A DNA stretch of 29,605 nucleotides from a virus (taxonomy: Duplodnaviria > Heunggongvirae > Uroviricota > Caudoviricetes), in IMG/VR virus record IMGVR_UViG_2547132415_000023, one strand, 5' to 3'. Below are positions 2,945 to 11,262 of the stretch, piece after piece; the first letter of the stretch is position 1, and every line of letters starts with the position of its first letter. Made by a program: the position numbers and the translations under genes. The notes under the pieces were generated by a model. That model made no database searches and was not told the origin of the DNA. It was given only the letters and a program-made list of their open reading frames with translations.

Positions 2945-2976
2945 ATTTGATTATGCAAGTTAGAGGGAATTTAACC

Positions 2977-3486
2977 ATGTTTGATTTTCAGGTTTCCAAA
3001 CATCCCCACTATGACGAAGCATGCCGCATTTTCGCACAGCGTCACAACATGGCGAAGCTGGCCGAGCGTGCAGGTATGAACGTTCAAACGTTACGTAACA
3101 AGCTCAACCCGGAACAGCCTCACCAGTTCACGCCGTCTGAATTGTGGCTGCTGACTGACCTGACCGAAGACTCAACCCTCATTGATGGTTTTTTAGCGCA
3201 GATTCACTGCCTACCATGCGTGCCGGTTAATGAGTTGGCTAAAGACAAATTGCAGTCTTATGTCATGCGCGCAATGCGTGAACTCGGCGAACTGGCGAGC
3301 GGCGCGGTATCTGATGAACGTCTGACCATTGCCCGTAAGCACAACATGATTGAAAGCGTTAACTCCGGCATTCGCATGTTGTCATTGTCGGCTCTGGCGC
3401 TGCATGCACGTCTGCAGACTAATCCAGCTATGTCGAGCGTGGTCGATACCATGAGCGGTATTGGCGCATCGTTTGGTCTGATTTGA
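2977..3486 (+). CDS. cII: 186-type CII lysogeny-establishment activator
   Basis: Sequence from MFDFQVSKHPHYDEACRIFAQRHNMAKLAERAGMNVQTLRNKLNPEQPHQF is CII-like with an HTH. I chose the ATG at 2977; the track ORF starts at 2947 in the same frame. Confidence 0.8.
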   Translation: MFDFQVSKHPHYDEACRIFAQRHNMAKLAERAGMNVQTLRNKLNPEQPHQFTPSELWLLTDLTEDSTLIDGFLAQIHCLPCVPVNELAKDKLQSYVMRAMRELGELASGAVSDERLTIARKHNMIESVNSGIRMLSLSALALHARLQTNPAMSSVVDTMSGIGASFGLI

Positions 3487-4513: not shown

Positions 4514-6736
4514 TTGGCTGTTCAATTCGCTTATCCGTGGAACGTCCCACGGTCGGCAATCTCCAGCCCATACCTTACTTATGAGCAACAGCATCGCCGC
4601 GACCGTATGTTCGCGGCTTTGCTGCATGCAAAAAAGGTGCTTTCTCTCCAGCCCGACTGCGTGCGGTTAGATGTTTATCGCACTGCTGCGGTGCTGGAGC
4701 AAAATCAGGGTAGTCAACGAGCCAATGCATTTTTAATCAACTTCTGCAAAAAGGCATTGCCGCGTCTTGAAATGGTCGCAAAAAAATACGAATGCGCTGG
4801 TATCAACAGCAAGGTATCAACCGCTGTTTTTGGAAGTCATTTTGATACTCAGCAAATGCAATATCTGTCGTCACGCATGGTTAATATGGTCGCCCGATAT
4901 AACCGTCTCCCGGATATGTCGCGCGCTGATGTTGACCTGTTGGCCGCTGATATTGCTAATTTCATTCGTGGTGAACTTGCCAACATTAATGACCACGGAT
5001 TCGGCGAGCTTAAAACGCTGTACACCTGGTATATTCGTGCTGGCTTTATTTCCCTCCAATTTAACGTTATCCCACCACATTGGGAGCGGGTTGAAAAAAA
5101 ATATGTCGGTGCGGATGAAATCGCACCGGCTATCGCCAAAATGTTTAACGATGGGTGGTGGCGCGGTCGTTTGCGCCGTGTTGCAGCTACGTGGCGCGAA
5201 CACCTGCAAATTGCAGTCGGCAACGTCAGTAAGAAAAAAAACACTTACGCGAGTAAAAACTGCGTGACTGACTGGCGTGAACAAAAGCGCCGCACTCGTG
5301 AATTTCTCAAAGGTCTGGATCTCGAAGACGAAGACGGCAACCGTATCAGCCTGATTGAAAAATATGATGGCTCAGTTGCTAACCCTGCGATTCGCCGCTG
5401 TGAGCTCATGACCCGCATTCGTGGGTTTGAAAACATCTGTAATGAGCTCGGTTATGTCGGTGAGTTTTACACTCTAACCGCGCCGTCAAAATATCACGCC
5501 ACGACTAAAGCCGGTTACCGTAACAGCAAATGGAGCGGTGCCAGCCCGGCTGACACGCAAAACTATCTAACCGGTATCTGGGCGCGTATCCGTGCCAAAC
5601 TACATCGGGAAGATGTCCGTATTTTCGGTATTCGTGTCGCCGAGCCTCATCACGACGGCACTCCACACTGGCACATGCTGATGTTCATGCTGCCGGAAGA
5701 TGTTGAATATGTTCGCTCCATCGTCCGTAAATACGCATGGAAAGAAGACCGCCACGAACTGAAAAGCGATAAATCCAAAAAAGCACGTTTCCACGCCGAG
5801 TCCATTGACCCGGAGAAAGGCAGCGCAACCGGCTATGTTGCTAAATACATCTCAAAAAATATCGACGGTTATGCTCTCGATGGTGAAACCGATGATGAAA
5901 GCGGTGAGCTGCTGAAAGAGACAGCCCCCGCCGTTTCAGCATGGGCTGCGCGCTGGCACATCCGTCAGTTTCAGTTTATTGGTGGTGCGCCGGTGACGGT
6001 TTACCGTGAGTTGCGTCGCCTCGCTGATACCGAAACCGCGCACGGTCTGAGCGTTGAGTTTGCCGCCGTCCATGATGCCGCCGACGCTGGTGACTGGGCT
6101 GGTTATGTTAATGCTCAGGGTGGGCCGTTTGTCCGTCGCGATGATTTACAGGTGCGCACACTGTATGAACCGCGTACCGAGCTTAATCAGTACGGTGAGG
6201 AAACGGTATGTATTAAGGGGGTCTACGATTCCTCCATAGGTGCAGGAAGCCCGATTTTAACCCGGCTCACTCAGTGGAAGATTGTTCCGAAGCGTGCTGT
6301 TGATTTGGCCGTTGACCTTCAGGACGGCAAAGCCGTCCCTCGGAGTTCTGTCAATAACTGTACGGGAAGCGAAAGCGATCCACCGATACTGGATTTAACA
6401 AAACCACTGAGTCGGCGTGAAAGACGAGAATTGACCAACCGACTCAGGAAGCAAAAGCCAGCAGCACGGCGAAAATTCATCCACGGAACGGATGAGCAAA
6501 ACGCAGCTATAGCTAAAACTATCGACGAGATACATCTGACAACCGGCATTAATATCAGCCGGGGCGAAGCCCTGCACCTGATGGCCGGTGGTAAAAGTTG
6601 TTTTGATGGTAAATGGCTACGCGGAACGGCCAAAGGAGAAATATTTTCCGCAGCACCATCGCATGAGGCTAAAGCTCGGAAAATCCTTAATCGTGTTGCG
6701 GCGATGGCTGAAGCATCAAAACCAATACATGAGTAA
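4514..6736 (+). CDS. A: Replication initiation endonuclease gpA (rolling-circle initiator)
   Basis: 740 aa. HxH metal motif region EPHHDGTPHWHMLMF and catalytic-tyrosine region GYVAKYISKNIDGYA are typical of P2/186 A proteins. Position after the early genes fits. Confidence 0.9.
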   Translation: MAVQFAYPWNVPRSAISSPYLTYEQQHRRDRMFAALLHAKKVLSLQPDCVRLDVYRTAAVLEQNQGSQRANAFLINFCKKALPRLEMVAKKYECAGINSKVSTAVFGSHFDTQQMQYLSSRMVNMVARYNRLPDMSRADVDLLAADIANFIRGELANINDHGFGELKTLYTWYIRAGFISLQFNVIPPHWERVEKKYVGADEIAPAIAKMFNDGWWRGRLRRVAATWREHLQIAVGNVSKKKNTYASKNCVTDWREQKRRTREFLKGLDLEDEDGNRISLIEKYDGSVANPAIRRCELMTRIRGFENICNELGYVGEFYTLTAPSKYHATTKAGYRNSKWSGASPADTQNYLTGIWARIRAKLHREDVRIFGIRVAEPHHDGTPHWHMLMFMLPEDVEYVRSIVRKYAWKEDRHELKSDKSKKARFHAESIDPEKGSATGYVAKYISKNIDGYALDGETDDESGELLKETAPAVSAWAARWHIRQFQFIGGAPVTVYRELRRLADTETAHGLSVEFAAVHDAADAGDWAGYVNAQGGPFVRRDDLQVRTLYEPRTELNQYGEETVCIKGVYDSSIGAGSPILTRLTQWKIVPKRAVDLAVDLQDGKAVPRSSVNNCTGSESDPPILDLTKPLSRRERRELTNRLRKQKPAARRKFIHGTDEQNAAIAKTIDEIHLTTGINISRGEALHLMAGGKSCFDGKWLRGTAKGEIFSAAPSHEAKARKILNRVAAMAEASKPIHE

Positions 6737-6812
6737 TTCATATCCATATCATGCACATACAGCAATCGCTCTATTCGTTTTTTTTCTTCCCATCTTTTGC
6801 CAATACGTGATA

Positions 6813-6828
6813 CTGTATAAATATACAG
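6813..6828. promoter_or_regulatory. LexA (SOS) box overlapping the promoter of the downstream small ORF
   Basis: CTGTATAAATATACAG (CTGT-N8-ACAG), within TACTGTATAAATATACAGTA, a 19/20 match to the palindromic enterobacterial SOS-box consensus. 22 bp upstream of the ORF starting at 6850 (RBS GGGAGGG); possible -35 TTGCCA at 6797-6802. Confidence 0.75.
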
Positions 6829-6849
6829 TAACCCTATGGGAGGGATTTC

Positions 6850-7032
6850 ATGGTTGGCGAACATTTCAGCCGAACGCAGCAAAAGTGGGCTTGTGTGCAA
6901 TTTATTGCCGAGGTATCTCTGATTGCAAACTGCAAGCCATCAGACTTAAAGCTCGCGCTCACTCTCATTGCAGACCTAGCAAACAGCGAAAATAACGAAA
7001 CCGAAGATGATAATTTTTATAAGGCTGATTAG
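6850..7032 (+). CDS. SOS-controlled small protein, candidate Tum-like antirepressor N-terminal part
   Basis: 60 aa ORF directly behind the LexA box with a strong RBS. Ends at TAG 7030-7032, in frame with the following DinI-like ORF. Confidence 0.5.
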   Translation: MVGEHFSRTQQKWACVQFIAEVSLIANCKPSDLKLALTLIADLANSENNETEDDNFYKAD

Positions 7033-7035
7033 ATT

Positions 7036-7266
7036 ATGAGAATCAATATCACGTTGGATAAAGAGCAAAAATTAGGGCAACAGATCATTGATGCTTTTCA
7101 GAATGAAATAACACATCGAGTACAATGCGTTTTTCCTGCAACAAAAGTTAACGTTAAGAAAGGGTCAATGACTAGTGTAGAGGCTATCGGATTCGATAAA
7201 GAGACGGACAGAGAAACATTAGGCAGCATATTACAAGAGATTTGGGAAGACGATAGCTGGCGTTAA
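7036..7266 (+). CDS. DinI-family protein
   Basis: 76 aa: MRINITLDK...IIDAF..EITHRVQCVFP...ILQEIWEDDSW matches the DinI pattern (MRIEVTI...RRIQYAFP...ILQETWE..DDW). Same frame as the preceding ORF. Confidence 0.75.
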   Translation: MRINITLDKEQKLGQQIIDAFQNEITHRVQCVFPATKVNVKKGSMTSVEAIGFDKETDRETLGSILQEIWEDDSWR

Positions 7267-7308
7267 ACATAATAACCGTGCTGGCGCAAAAACTAGCTTT
7301 TTGCGTCG

Positions 7309-7349
7309 GCGGGGTTGAGTAACGAGCCCACGAGGCTTAAGTCCTGCCT
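7309..7349. repeat. Imperfect ~40-bp direct repeat, copy 1
   Basis: GGCGGGGTTGAGTAACGAGCCCACGAGGC... compared with GGCGGGGTTGAACAACGAGCTACGCGAGGC... at 7711; each follows a small hairpin placed just after a stop codon. Confidence 0.45.
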
Positions 7350-7465
7350 TTCAAAATTTCTCAATGTGCTATTAATGACACGCCCATGATTAATGAGGCA
7401 TGACCTGAGATGGTTTTATAGTGGCGTTTTGACGGCACTGATTAAAATTCATTGAGGGCGATAAT

Positions 7466-7693
7466 ATGCATCGACTATCAGGTGAAATTCCGCATCACAA
7501 AACCAAAAGCATCAAACTGATGGCCATCGTTCATCGTCTGCAGCAGATAATGGTCAATGAGAATTTGACACCCACAGAGCTGGTCGGGTGTGCCGAAATA
7601 GTCAGGGATAATTACGGCAAGCTGGATAGCATCAGCAGGCCGATACAATACGCCCCCCACCACGTCGACGATAGCAAACGTCGTCAGCGCTGA
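7466..7693 (+). CDS. Hypothetical small protein
   Basis: 75 aa ORF with GAGGGCG RBS, bracketed by the two ~40-bp direct repeats. No recognisable motif. Confidence 0.35.
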   Translation: MHRLSGEIPHHKTKSIKLMAIVHRLQQIMVNENLTPTELVGCAEIVRDNYGKLDSISRPIQYAPHHVDDSKRRQR

Positions 7694-7710
7694 AACTTGT
7701 TTTCAGGGCT

Positions 7711-7752
7711 GGCGGGGTTGAACAACGAGCTACGCGAGGCGTTAGCCCGCCC
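7711..7752. repeat. Imperfect ~40-bp direct repeat, copy 2
   Basis: See copy 1; about 80% identical over ~40 bp. Confidence 0.45.
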
Positions 7753-7956
7753 CGTAGAGACCGCTCCAAACCGTCGCCCTGAATGCCGGTTTTTTTATGT
7801 CATTTTCCCGCGATTTCCCCGTTTTTTAGCCGTGCATGCATCAGGTGCATGGTTTTGCATGCGTCAGTCTTGCCCCTTCTGTCCGTGCGCCGCCAGAGCT
7901 GGCGCGGATCCAGAGTTGTCATGCAACTGCATTAAAACCGACCCATAAAGCGGGCA

Positions 7957-7975
7957 GGCGTGGCGGGGAAAGCAT
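7957..7975 (+). other. cos site (19-nt cohesive-end sequence) of a P2/186-type phage
   Basis: GGCGTGGCGGGGAAAGCAT followed by TGCGCGC matches my recollection of the P2/186 cohesive ends (P2 GGCGAGGCGGGGAAAGCAC). Orientation agrees with a leftward portal gene to its right. Confidence 0.55.
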
Positions 7976-8239
7976 TGCGCGCAACGAACAAAAATGATTT
8001 TTGGAACTTTGATTGTTTTGGCAACGTTGTCTTAATGTAGTTGATGTCTAATGACTTATGTGCTGTCATAGCGGCAATAGCTTGTATGACTCTTATCGAT
8101 AGACTAATTAAATTATATAAATCAGATTACTAATGTGCTAAAGCGATTATAAGACTAACTCCATCATAAATTAAAGAATTAAGTTAGTCTGTTAAAATAG
8201 GTGAATTGAGAGAAAGTAATTTATAAATTAGGAGGAAAT

Positions 8240-9568
8240 ATGAATTGTAATGAACTTTTTTATTCCGCTGACAACCATGCATTAACGTTGCATGAAAGAA
8301 CAAAGTTATCTACGGTTGTTTTAGATAAAGGCATTACAAAAAAGAATGAATTAATAGAGTTTTTGAGAGAGGAATTAAAAGGGTCATTTGGTTGCGACGT
8401 TAAGTTTTGGTTGCAAGGATCATACAAAAGTCACACTCTCATTAAGCCTGTTGATAAGTTTTCTTCATATGATATTGATGTGGGCATTTATTTGTTCTTT
8501 GATGCAGAGGCTGAAGAGATTAATTCAAAGGATGTAAAGGATACGTTGAAAGATGCTTTACTATCTTACTGCGAAATAAATAACGAGGCGAAGATTCAGG
8601 AGTCAAAGAATGCGTGTGAGGGATTAATATTCTCCTCCTTTCTTACAATCGACACCCCTATCTATTATAAAACAACGACAAAAGTAAAACTTGCAACAGA
8701 TAAAGGTTGGAGTGATAGCGATCCAAAAGCTATACAAGACTGGTTAACAAATTCACATGCTACAAAACCAGCTAGAGCATTAATGAAACGGCTCGTCCGT
8801 TACTTTAAAGCATGGGTTAATGTACAGTGGCACGGTACTTCATTTAAAAAAATACCTTCGTTAGCGATAAATGTCCTAGTTGCTAATAACTTAAGTATCC
8901 ATGATAGAGAGGACGATTGTTTTATATATACAGTGTTAGCTATTTGTGAGCAATTAGAGCGCTCAATGGAAGTAGAGAATCCTCTTAATGGCACCAATTT
9001 GCTTGCGATGCCTGATGATGCTTTAACTTTCGCGCATCAAAAGCTTCAACAATTGAAGAAAGTTTGTATAGATTGTATAGATGCCAACGAAAATGAAAGG
9101 AATATAAATTTTTCTAATTTATTCCAACATTATTTCCCTCAGGTAACGATCGTATCAAACGGAGGGGGAACTGGTCTGCCAGCGATTACTACAACCCCAG
9201 AAATATCTGTCTGTCGTTATGATAAACATGGTTCCCACATTGAAACTGTCTTAACGGATCAGTTAACGGTTGATAAAGGTGACTCATTAACATTCACCAT
9301 TTGTAATCCTGGGGCTTTTAGCCCTTATGCTCAGACGAAATGGACGGTTAGAAATGTTGGTAGCCAAGCTAATGATGCCAATGATATAGGGCACATTGAA
9401 TATGGAAAACCCAACGAAAGTCATAAACGGGGAACGTCTTATACTGGCTCGCATACGATGGAATGTATGGTTACTTACAATGGCGCTGTTTTAGGTTTAA
9501 AAGTTATTCAAGTTATAGTACGGCCTGCAATTTCTGTTAAAAGACCTATTAGAAAGTTTTGGAGATGA
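8240..9568 (+). CDS. cGAS/DncV-like (SMODS-type) nucleotidyltransferase with C-terminal extension; candidate signal synthase of a defence module
   Basis: 442 aa, strong RBS AGGAGG at 8231-8236. Pol-beta NTase signature G60-S61 ... D78-I-D80 (QGSYKSHTLIKPVDKFSSYDIDVGIYLF), with further acidic residues downstream. About 140 C-terminal residues are Gly/Thr/Ser-rich and beta-like with no recognised match. Low-GC gene. Confidence 0.7.
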   Translation: MNCNELFYSADNHALTLHERTKLSTVVLDKGITKKNELIEFLREELKGSFGCDVKFWLQGSYKSHTLIKPVDKFSSYDIDVGIYLFFDAEAEEINSKDVKDTLKDALLSYCEINNEAKIQESKNACEGLIFSSFLTIDTPIYYKTTTKVKLATDKGWSDSDPKAIQDWLTNSHATKPARALMKRLVRYFKAWVNVQWHGTSFKKIPSLAINVLVANNLSIHDREDDCFIYTVLAICEQLERSMEVENPLNGTNLLAMPDDALTFAHQKLQQLKKVCIDCIDANENERNINFSNLFQHYFPQVTIVSNGGGTGLPAITTTPEISVCRYDKHGSHIETVLTDQLTVDKGDSLTFTICNPGAFSPYAQTKWTVRNVGSQANDANDIGHIEYGKPNESHKRGTSYTGSHTMECMVTYNGAVLGLKVIQVIVRPAISVKRPIRKFWR

Positions 9569-9572
9569 TAGT

Positions 9573-10151
9573 ATGTGGGAACTAATGCCACCAAAAGCTA
9601 AATACGGCTTATCAATTGGAATTTCTATTCTTATCTTCCTTATGTATAAGGAATGTTTTAAGTTTCCTTTTGCTAGATCTATCTCCTTTACGATCAGTAC
9701 CATTACCATCCTTGCTTGGTTATTTGGAAAGTATTTATGGAAATATATTTATTTTGGTATCTTTAAACGGAATTTTTGCCCAGATTTTAATGGCACGTGG
9801 ACGGCTACGATAAAATCAAATTTTAGCCCGAATACTCAGGTTGAATTTCCATTAAAGATAGAGGCTAATTTCTTCTCTGTTAAGATGACAGGCAATACCA
9901 CTATCGGAAGAACCTACACAAATCTATGTAAAATTGTTCGTGCAGAAGATGATAGTTTCGAGTTGGTATATATGTTTAGAGTTATGAATGACTCTCCATC
10001 TGATTCTGATGCTGTTTTCTATGAAGGGGCGGCGAGGTTACGTGTAGTTGACATTGACTCTATGCAAATGATAGGGGTCTTTTGGACAAATCGATGTTGG
10101 CAAAATAATTTAAACACTGCTGGTTCTATAACTTTAACGAAACAGAGTTAG
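9573..10151 (+). CDS. Small membrane effector candidate: two N-terminal TM helices plus beta-rich C-terminal domain (Cap15-like)
   Basis: 192 aa, starts 4 nt after the NTase stop with its own GGAG RBS. Hydrophobic segments LSIGISILIFLMY (~13-25) and ISFTISTITILAWLF (~37-51); the C-terminal ~130 aa shows alternating hydrophobic patterns suggesting beta strands. Confidence 0.65.
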   Translation: MWELMPPKAKYGLSIGISILIFLMYKECFKFPFARSISFTISTITILAWLFGKYLWKYIYFGIFKRNFCPDFNGTWTATIKSNFSPNTQVEFPLKIEANFFSVKMTGNTTIGRTYTNLCKIVRAEDDSFELVYMFRVMNDSPSDSDAVFYEGAARLRVVDIDSMQMIGVFWTNRCWQNNLNTAGSITLTKQS

Positions 10152-10245: not shown

Positions 10246-11262
10246 CTAATCCTCGTCAATACTGTAATCCTTGAAGCGGACCACTTCCATTCCCAGCCAG
10301 TCATTAATTTCTTTAAATCGCTCCTGCAACGGTGTCAGCTCATTACGTACGAACACCTTTGCCACCTTCTCAACATCACCGAGCGACGCGATGTTTTCAG
10401 GCTTGCCCCCCATTAGCTGGAACGGCACGCGGTGTGCATCGAGCAGGTCAGCGGCGCTCACCTTTTTAATGTTAAAGAAATCATCTTTCGTCGCGACCTC
10501 ACTCAAAGGCACGATCTTGATGCCGTCGGGTTTACCGTTTGGCGCATAGAAAAACAGGTTTTTAAAATTCCCTAGTCCTTTTGAGTCACGCATGGCCGAG
10601 CGCAGCGCATCAACATCCGTGCTGCTTTGTGCCGCATCGGTCACATACATGATGTAACCCGCATGCGCCCCGTTCTGGTAATACTTGCGACGAAAAAGCG
10701 TGGCGGATTCATTCAGCCACGCGGAATTGAGTGCGCTCAGGTATTCCGGCATGCCATAAAGCTCCTGATTGATGTCAGGCTCCAGCAGGTGAAACACCGA
10801 GCCGGGTGCGAACTGGTGCGGGTTGTTAAAACTCGAAATGTACCAGTAAACTCCATCCTCAACGCCACGACGGGTATATTTAGCAGGTGATGTTTCCAGT
10901 TTTATAAGCTGGCCGGTGACGCTCATGCGCTTCTCAAGATAGCCGTTGGCAAAGACCAGATAATCCAGTACGAGGCGGCTGAAATCCTGACGTGACAGCA
11001 GCGGGTGCGGGATGTAGGTACTCGCCAGAATGTTACGTTTCACGTAAATCGGCGAGCTGTGATGAACGGCGGCGCGCAGGCTTTTTGCCAGACCAGAGAA
11101 GTTGACCGGCGGCTCGTACCACTTACCGTTATTGATGCACTCGACATAATCGAGGATATCGCGACGATCCAGAACGGCAGAGGGCTCGCCAAAGGTGAAC
11201 GCCTCCATTTTTTGCGGTGCGCTAACGGTCGTTGTGGTGGGTATCTTCAGTTGCTTTTTCAT
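10246..11262 (-). CDS. Q: Portal protein gpQ
   Basis: 338 aa, size and position (leftward, next to cos, preceding P) match P2 Q. Confidence 0.9.
   Translation of the reverse strand: MKKQLKIPTTTTVSAPQKMEAFTFGEPSAVLDRRDILDYVECINNGKWYEPPVNFSGLAKSLRAAVHHSSPIYVKRNILASTYIPHPLLSRQDFSRLVLDYLVFANGYLEKRMSVTGQLIKLETSPAKYTRRGVEDGVYWYISSFNNPHQFAPGSVFHLLEPDINQELYGMPEYLSALNSAWLNESATLFRRKYYQNGAHAGYIMYVTDAAQSSTDVDALRSAMRDSKGLGNFKNLFFYAPNGKPDGIKIVPLSEVATKDDFFNIKKVSAADLLDAHRVPFQLMGGKPENIASLGDVEKVAKVFVRNELTPLQERFKEINDWLGMEVVRFKDYSIDED

Follow-up and report, generated by a model that had tools for sequence, protein, structure and literature searches.

A strand-specific hairpin-and-tail element at the border of the cos-proximal variable region in P2-family prophages, tentatively a structured RNA of operon ends

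Hairpins that stabilise or process messages are well known from the repetitive extragenic palindromic (REP) stabilisers of malEFG, the RNase III sites of T7 and the sib retroregulator of lambda. A different use of the 3' end of a message has been described in Klebsiella pneumoniae, where the small RNA DinR derives from the 3' end of chromosomal dinI, ends at a Rho-independent terminator, pairs with the ribosome-binding site of ftsZ and represses this gene (PMC10907235). In P2-family phages, the well-studied hotspot of anti-phage defence genes near cos has been defined by its flanking genes (gpA to gpQ), and cos ends and homologous recombination have been proposed to be at work there (Rousset et al. 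2022, PMC9122126; PMC13586616). Here we describe an element of ~72 nt, consisting of a hairpin and a tail, that occurs twice in a 29,605-nt stretch of DNA from a member of the Caudoviricetes (IMG/VR record IMGVR_UViG_2547132415_000023; this whole stretch is called the window below).

Like the stabilising hairpins, this element is a stable stem-loop without a U-tract that follows stop codons, is co-oriented with its operon, lies inside a mapped transcript of phage 186 and is conserved in structure by covariation. Unlike them, it does not occur genome-wide but in 1–3 copies per positive genome and in P2-family prophages only, and it adds a nearly invariant 26-nt tail. With respect to the 186 terminators t95a and t95b (NC_001317), the first copy in the window (copy 1) stands at the t95a position after tum/dinI, and the second (copy 2) just upstream of the t95b homologue. 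In contrast to these terminators, which are canonical hairpins with a U-tract, the element lacks such a tract and the 186 transcript reads through it. As with phage linker sequences, the element is short and conserved, lies between backbone and variable cargo, inside the gpA-to-gpQ hotspot, and homology breaks at its edges; it differs from them in being structured and strand-specific, and is thus more than a conserved patch. DinR resembles it in being a non-coding RNA feature directly behind a gene of the dinI type, within a transcript under LexA control, but the phage element also follows genes other than dinI. Homology to DinR was rejected, the core motif of the element being absent from the supplementary text of PMC10907235, and the comparison is meant as an analogy only.

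A preliminary description of the window had reported two imperfect direct repeats of ~40 bp, ~400 bp apart, each following a short hairpin that comes right after a stop codon. A repeat finder returned a 44-nt pair with 75% identity, alignable over ~70 nt with one or two indels. Both copies are present in direct orientation with a start-to-start spacing of 403 bp, and their cores at 7308–7327 (GGCGGGGTTGAGTAACGAGC) and 7711–7730 match at 18 of 20 positions. The second core thus starts where it had been placed, and the first starts one base before the reported 7309. The repeat is real, but its true units are ~72 nt long. The hairpins also exist, yet hairpin and repeat form one object, as the 18-bp stem has GGCGGGGTT for its 3' arm. 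Copy 1 starts 5 nt past the stop codon of a DinI-like gene (7264–7266), in line with the earlier account; the TGA of the 75-aa open reading frame (ORF) between the copies, on the other hand, is part of the 5' arm of copy 2 instead of preceding the hairpin.

Global alignment of the two copies gives 49 identical positions in 73 columns. The 17-mer GGGGTTGAACAACGAGC, with up to three mismatches allowed, occurs twice against 0.04 expected occurrences. A profile built from relatives only, leaving out the window and all window-type copy 1 sequences, recovers copy 1 (E = 1.3e-11) and copy 2 (E = 2.1e-23). Because of this 17-mer count and the recovery of copy 1 by the relatives-only profile, we can eliminate chance similarity between GC-rich sequences, against which the earlier account had been guarded. 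Copy 2 is of the consensus type common to 186 and the Peduoviruses, and aligns to phage 186 with 91.5% identity over 59 nt (locus L006, 1857–1915). The stems of the two copies differ at several positions, yet both are completely paired, and the RNA fold of 7270–7352 around copy 1 has an energy of −32.8 kcal/mol (z = −3.2). A covariance model of the element finds no third copy in the window, and an examination of coding potential across the element found the frames interrupted in copy 1.

The anatomy of the unit was defined from 99 unique instances. From 5' to 3' it consists of a stop codon, the sequence (C/T)AAAC or ATAAC, a mismatch, a 15-bp stem topped by an A-run, a loop and a T-run, a second mismatch, GTT and the tail. 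The hairpin can therefore be written as AAC-N-15 bp/loop/15 bp-N-GUU, with 18 bp in all. These 18 pairs are paired in 94.6% of cells, compared with 31–45% in slid controls. Ten of the 18 have changed on both sides (30 cells), and none of 500 shuffles reaches the observed values. The GGCGGGG motif, which had correctly been described as common to the repeats and the cohesive end, belongs to one stem arm and occurs in the variants GACGGGG and GGCCGGG with compensation on the opposite side. Among 12 diverse loci, pairwise identity is 0.86 for the hairpin and 0.86 for the tail, compared with 0.70 for the adjoining ORF and 0.39 for the downstream flank.

Pairing is strongly strand-specific. The mean energy of the RNA hairpin is −26.5 kcal/mol on the plus strand and −17.1 kcal/mol on the minus strand, and of 98 unique sequences, 96 fold more stably as the plus strand. 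This asymmetry comes with 231 G.U pairs, and three stem positions have G.U or U.G as their most frequent state. For the two window copies, covariance model scores are 92 and 66 bits with the plus strand, but 20 and 17 bits with the minus strand. The asymmetry therefore rules out a palindrome that serves as a protein site on double-stranded DNA, and argues that the element works as a folded plus strand. It also rules out a minus-strand terminator for convergent cargo transcripts, in which the G.U pairs turn into A.C mismatches; moreover, the neighbouring cargo is as often transcribed from the plus strand (49 plus, 33 minus).

The tail, with the consensus GAACAACGAGC-NNN-GCGAGGCGTTAG (also given as GAACAACGAGC-NNN-GCGAGGCGUUAG), is single-stranded and conserved in sequence, apart from a hypervariable internal triplet (2–4 nt) that goes with the hairpin type and not with the downstream cargo. 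Substitutions in its GAACAAC motif preserve an A-R-N pattern (AGU-AAC, AAU-AAC, AGC-AAC). A mini-hairpin CGAGC-NNN-GCGAG with tandem G.A pairs would explain the hypervariable triplet; G.U changes and a CTCGC variant, in which the pairing is completely Watson–Crick, also favour it. The near invariance of the tail suggests a specific binding partner. Several specific roles for parts of the element were considered and rejected. A pseudoknot between a CUCGC loop and GCGAG in the tail does not hold, as the loops of divergent members (CUGG, AUG, GCCUGA, GUACC) are unrelated while their tail is unchanged. The octamer GCTGGCGG, one mismatch off Chi and in an orientation that suits RecBCD entry from cos, varies among members (GCCGGCGG, GCTGACGG, GTCGGCGG and others), and none of its forms is a true Chi. 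A sigma-70 promoter in the tail (TTGAAC-18-TTAGNN) fits poorly and a promoter scan finds none there. Finally, a secondary nick site for the A protein should resemble the ori sequence of P2 or 186, and no such similarity was found.

BLAST with the 79-nt version from 186 detected the unit in 85 phage records, at one or two places per record. The carriers belong to Eganvirus (186, PSP3, SEN1, and Yersinia and Erwinia phages), Peduovirus (WPhi, pro147, P2-EC58, P24A7b) and Klebsiella Vimunumvirus. Four close E. coli prophages carry the unit after the same genes as the window; PSP3 has two copies, and 186 has one, after orf97. Among complete E. coli genomes, 525 of 5426 (~10%) contain the element, in 598 places (1–3 per positive genome, median 1). 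A chromosomal repeat of the REP or bacterial interspersed mosaic element type, which would be expected in tens to hundreds of copies, can thus be dismissed given a maximum of 3. All places inspected lie between gene A and cos of a P2-family prophage. The element also occurs on 18 plasmids, and the one inspected (IncC) carries a whole P2-like prophage. Two samples were drawn irrespective of the element: 8 loci from other genera, fetched via the 75-aa ORF, and 75 complete loci, fetched via the C-terminus of gene A. The full unit was present at 6 of the 8, one more locus showed an internal deletion and one had no element; of the 75, 34 carry one copy and 16 carry two.

The element always lies 3' of a plus-strand gene, in the same orientation, and starts at or within ~10 nt of the stop codon. 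Flanks and distances to cos were compared at 103 loci. Upstream, the sequences fall into 23 flank classes with at least eight unrelated contexts, including three types of DinI C-terminus, the gp37-like ORF and 186 orf97. Downstream, about 49 sequence classes start immediately after GTTAG. Between the last element and cos lie 209 to 3153 bp, and in 30 of the 103 loci, as in the window, this distance is ~210 bp without any cargo. Elsewhere the cargo reaches ~3 kb, and WPhi has ~3.4 kb of genes between element and cos. The right edge of the cargo is a t95b-type terminator ~170 bp left of cos, at which no partial element was found. The breakpoints are exact when the window is compared with individual phages: 186, Yersinia and EtG phages match it from 7675 to cos, and Peduoviruses match exactly 7466–7745, that is, from the start of the ORF to the end of the element. 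A conserved sequence is thus shared between unrelated flanks with breakpoints at its edges, as in a linker at a module boundary. The variable region near cos, called 'TO region' or defence hotspot (PMC9122126), has the element as its left border. Since homology breaks at the element edges and relatives exist with and without the ORF, ORF and element together behave as an element-bounded module.

The arrangement with two copies is common to PSP3-like relatives, and in every clear case the copies lie ~400–430 bp apart and flank the gp37-like ORF. Comparison of the gene content between them shows relatives with the order DinI-element-ORF-element and at least five others in which DinI, element, terminator and cos follow each other without the ORF. 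The ORF-less loci could be the expected outcome of recombination between the copies or the starting state of an insertion. Copy 1 splits into distinct, position-specific lineages that go with the DinI allele. The identity of copy 1 to copy 2 is 0.684 within genomes and 0.675 between genomes, and therefore gives no sign of recent duplication or of gene conversion, which we had considered. From these sequence comparisons, the two-copy arrangement is old, with each copy maintained independently, and is not a recent insertion scar.

How may such an element work? In phage 186 it occupies positions 30337–30415, between the stop codon of orf97 and the annotated terminator t95b (30436–30463) of the p95 transcript. 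Because the 186 element lies upstream of t95b within this mapped SOS transcript, it is part of a plus-strand RNA and is no terminator itself. The features of an intrinsic terminator are accordingly incomplete: the G+C-rich stem-loop is present (18 bp, mean −26.5 kcal/mol), but a U-tract 3' of the stem was not found, and GAACAACGAG or GGGGUUGAAC follows instead. In a plus-strand terminator scan of copy 1, the sole call was an alternative 5-bp mini-stem that uses an internal T5 run. Because of the mapped transcript in 186, the missing U-tract, the position at stop codons and the plus-strand-specific pairing, we tentatively favour, with a probability of roughly 0.4, the reading that the element is a portable, non-coding, structured RNA module of enterobacterial P2/186-family phages at the ends of SOS (tum/dinI) or early operons, and also a homology anchor for cargo exchange. 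We infer that it acts at the RNA level, as a stabiliser or processing site. The hairpin would give the upstream message an exonuclease-resistant 3' end or an intercistronic processing point, and the stability and expression of this message would become independent of the foreign cargo downstream. The tail, rich in A-R-N, could be a target for an endonuclease or for a binding factor such as Hfq. The element is conserved and its neighbours are not; for this reason it could also act as the left homology arm for the exchange of cargo, with the block of t95b terminator and cos as the right arm. In the phage of the window, a second, older and diverged copy follows dinI, so that the conserved gp37-like ORF is bracketed.

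Several observations weigh against this reading. The element is common and conserved, yet dispensable. P2 has none according to the covariance model, and only 38 nt separate orf91 from tin in this phage; 25 of the 75 loci anchored on gene A are equally without a copy. In a Buttiauxella locus (L135, 3200–3260), an internal deletion takes out the hairpin (junction CAAACCCCGCC/AGGCGTTAG), and in an Entomohabitans locus (L137) the ORF runs straight to the terminator with no element in between. Pairing that tolerates G.T would fit a folded plus strand of DNA equally well, and a simple exonuclease barrier leaves the near-invariant tail unexplained. The tail mini-hairpin has zero pairs changed on both sides. 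Rfam 15 gave no match at the gathering threshold in the whole window; at E ≤ 10, the region 7000–8300 returned only sub-threshold eukaryotic or archaeal snoRNA and plant microRNA families, which we take as chance. The element is indeed absent from Rfam, and the inspected GenBank and RefSeq records carry no annotation for it. It is not described in the hotspot papers PMC9122126 and PMC13586616, and an earlier description in the variable-region literature is possible. The element nevertheless gives the hotspot a nucleotide-precise left border and an anchor for swapping by homology, and it makes a strong candidate for a structured RNA by which the end of an SOS (tum/dinI) or early operon is controlled. 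A covariance model of it would improve the delimitation of the hotspot and the annotation of prophages. We regard the finding as useful rather than startling, given that the element is non-essential and that we infer its function.

Two other functions of a folded plus strand would account for part of these data, and we consider both of them unlikely. During rolling-circle replication, the displaced plus strand could fold into an initiation site, or a primosome or helicase-loading site, for the lagging strand. The synthesis of this strand in P2 requires the B protein and DnaB, and we know of no loading site for it. The plus-strand-specific pairing would be explained in this way, as would the fixed orientation and position, always a few kb downstream of gene A with its internal ori, and the tandem G.A and mini-hairpin-like tail motifs (GCGAAGC in some variants) would be stable in DNA too. 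However, P2, the very model for this replication, has no element, a third of the close relatives also lack it and natural deletions exist. Two copies 400 bp apart would be superfluous, the tight abutment to stop codons would be unexplained and the element has no similarity to the nick site of the A protein. A similarly low probability attaches to a regulatory RNA in place of a passive barrier, either an Hfq-binding element of the 3' untranslated region (3'-UTR) or a DinR-like small RNA derived from the 3'-UTR of the LexA-controlled tum/dinI operon; in genomes without cargo, such as the window, this RNA would comprise hairpin, A-R-N tail and t95b terminator. The operon is of the SOS type (LexA box, tumA/dinI), and a terminator follows within about 30–50 nt in 30 of 103 loci, including the window. 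The tail AACAACGA with its core AACAAC(G)A resembles the Hfq distal-face motif, AAYAAYAA or (ARN)n, and its variants keep A-R-N; this is a likeness of motifs only. The small RNA from dinI's 3' end, which is processed by RNase E and depends on Hfq (PMC10907235), offers a precedent. Against this stand the ~70% of loci in which 0.2–3 kb of cargo separate the element from any terminator, and copy 1, which never has a terminator. In addition, DinR comes from chromosomal dinI, the tail contains a Shine–Dalgarno-like GAGG and not its complement, and no complementary site was found in the window.

The remaining alternatives concern DNA. Sites of the cosB type for terminase, or sites for another protein on double-stranded DNA at cos, had been proposed in view of the shared GGCGGGG, which does occur within the cohesive end, and copy 2 of the window is only 212 bp from cos. 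This explanation is very hard to reconcile with a distance to cos that varies from 209 to 3153 bp (and the ~3.4 kb of genes in WPhi), with a GGCGGGG arm that varies with compensation and with the strand asymmetry; furthermore, P2 packages its DNA without the element, and 25 of 75 close relatives have none either. An attachment-like duplication, also suggested earlier, is unsupported: both copies lie within the prophage, and neither resembles att. As to the proposed scars of a cassette insertion, the element edges are indeed exact breakpoints of homology and ORF and element behave as a module. The copies themselves, though, are not scars, because stem changes are compensated in both and the position-specific lineages of copy 1 are old. 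That the element has no function of its own, being a leftover duplication or a neutral patch of homology, would agree with its dispensability and with relatives that differ by ORF plus element exactly at the element boundaries. It is nonetheless quite improbable: in lineages that have diverged from each other, compensatory and G.U changes have kept the stem paired, conservation is higher in the element than in the coding sequence next to it, and the unit has been retained across at least eight genera and two phage genera. Only slightly less improbable is a structure-specific recombination site similar to attC of integrons, in which a phage or host enzyme would recognise the folded plus strand at its AAC/GTT-based hairpin and capture mobile ORF-plus-element units, together with defence cargo, near cos. 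If true, this would be an integron-like mechanism in P2-family phages without an integron integrase. The element shares with attC the strand-specific fold of a single strand, a stem base with AAC on its 5' side and GTT on its 3' side, with GTTGAAC or GTTGAGT coming next in agreement with the R' pattern GTTRRRY, and the modularity of ORF plus site, with several unrelated ORFs, two tandem units in the window and nucleotide-sharp junctions on both sides. Unlike attC, its 5' box reads (A/G)CAAAC (also xCAAAC) or ATAAC instead of RYYYAAC, with 3–4 bp paired there, so that the R'' box is unmatched, and it has neither bulged bases nor a central spacer. The 26–30 nt after GTT are conserved in all contexts and the junctions follow GTTAG at the far end of the tail, so that the crossover would not lie between G and TT. 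The right end of the cargo has no element. No IntI-type integrase or cargo recombinase was seen among the genes inspected, a set that does not amount to a systematic search, and sharp junctions are expected for any selected element in unselected DNA.

The window is a prophage of the PSP3/186 type (Eganvirus, P2 family). Over 85% of its first 25 kb, identity with Escherichia phage vB_EcoM-613R3 is 97.7%; identity with PSP3 is 88%. The features around the two copies are collected in Table 1. The LexA-box-like palindrome upstream of the tumA-like gene sits where 186 has its annotated p95/LexA site. Judged by its sequence, it is likely to mark the SOS promoter, whose transcript would contain both copies of the element. 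The 75-aa ORF is the counterpart of PSP3 gp37 and its relatives, which end at a TAG just 5' of the element. Relative to these, the C-terminus in the window is frameshifted at a C-run (7653–7659), and the ORF continues beyond the position equivalent to their TAG (7672–7674) to the TGA inside the element. The t95b-like terminator is the conserved right junction of the variable slot in cargo-bearing loci. The right end of 186 stops at the base equivalent to 7956, directly in front of the cohesive-end sequence.

Table 1. Positions of the two element copies and of neighbouring features in the window.
Feature	Position	Strand	Basis or remark
Element copy 1 (hairpin and tail)	7271–7341	+	covariance model 66.5 bits, E = 1.2e-18, all 72 model positions
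Copy 1 stem-loop	7274–7316	+	arms 7274–7292 and 7298–7316, loop CUAGC 7293–7297; RNA fold, covariance model alignment
Copy 1 tail, GAGTAACGAGC-CC-ACGAGGCTTAAG	7317–7341	+	diverged form of the consensus tail; alignments
Element copy 2 (hairpin and tail)	7674–7745	+	covariance model 92.1 bits, E = 2e-26
Copy 2 stem-loop	7677–7719	+	arms 7677–7695 and 7701–7719, loop CUUGU 7696–7700; ORF stop TGA 7691–7693 inside the 5' arm
Copy 2 tail, GAACAACGAGC-TAC-GCGAGGCGTTAG	7720–7745	+	Peduovirus homology stops exactly at 7745
Replication gene A	4514–6736		
LexA-box-like palindrome, TACTGTATAAATATACAGTA	6811–6830	+	near-consensus; direct sequence reading; ~20 nt upstream of the tumA-like start
tumA-like gene, first of the SOS operon	6850–7032	+	phrog_1993 E = 1e-31; PSP3 TumA annotation
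DinI-like gene (tumB type), upstream of copy 1	7036–7266	+	Pfam DinI E = 1.4e-17; PSP3 tumB annotation
75-aa ORF between the copies, gp37-like conserved small protein	7466–7693	+	phrog_11386 E = 8e-43, residues 1–65
t95b-like intrinsic terminator (AAACCG...CGGTTTTTTT)	about 7768–7796	+	homology to annotated 186 t95b
cos cohesive-end sequence, GGCGTGGCGGGGAAAGCAT	7957–7975	+	17/19 positions identical to annotated P2 cosR; 212 bp from the end of copy 2
Two-gene cargo, CBASS-like (see text)	8240–10151	+	AT-rich, between cos and portal gene Q
Portal gene Q	10246–11262	−	

Some further observations concern individual loci. At locus L182 (5697–6017), the N-terminus of DinI is fused to unrelated sequence, and element and t95b are both deleted. 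Locus L193 has no element at the normal site; a weak covariance model match on its minus strand (1465–1534, 24.5 bits) falls within coding sequence of the early region and is probably due to chance. Many E. coli chromosome and plasmid records (for example, NZ_CP110511.1, NZ_CP139803.1 and NZ_CP104682.1) have the element at identical coordinates, either 2623–2691 or 2947–3015. This looks like a start-fixing artefact of assembly pipelines, by which circular records are rotated to begin at P2 gene A. The IncC plasmid mentioned above (NZ_CP025141.1, ~205 kb, conjugative, from Klebsiella pneumoniae) contains a complete-looking P2-like prophage with int, cox, A, portal, terminase and capsid genes, and the cargo directly 3' of its element is a reverse transcriptase. 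Similar matches were found in about 15 further plasmids of ~120–216 kb from several genera.

A small plus-strand ORF recurs as cargo between element and t95b (locus L004, 1409–1603, and four other loci); its product is a hydrophobic peptide (...YENPWTTIFLLIVASMCLNSVIGALRGQ). Three further loci retain what deletion has left of this class of cargo (CTGGTTACCAGATTGACACC...). The stem of the t95b-like terminator is weaker in the window (AAACCGTCGCC...GCCGGTTTTTTT) than in relatives (AAACCGGCACC...GAATGCCGGTTTTTTT). Between this terminator and cos, a conserved block contains near-repeated TGCATGC motifs (TGCATGCATCAG and TGCATGCGTCAG, 23 nt apart, 7833–7867), which are possible terminase recognition sequences. 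Across cos from the element-bounded slot, the window carries the two-gene cargo of Table 1. The first of these genes codes for a 442-aa CD-NTase with DncV-like NTase and AGS-C domains (PADLOC cyclase E = 1e-159), the second for a 192-aa Cap15-like effector with two transmembrane segments, and by these sequence matches the pair is assigned to the type I-like cyclic-oligonucleotide-based anti-phage signalling systems (CBASS).

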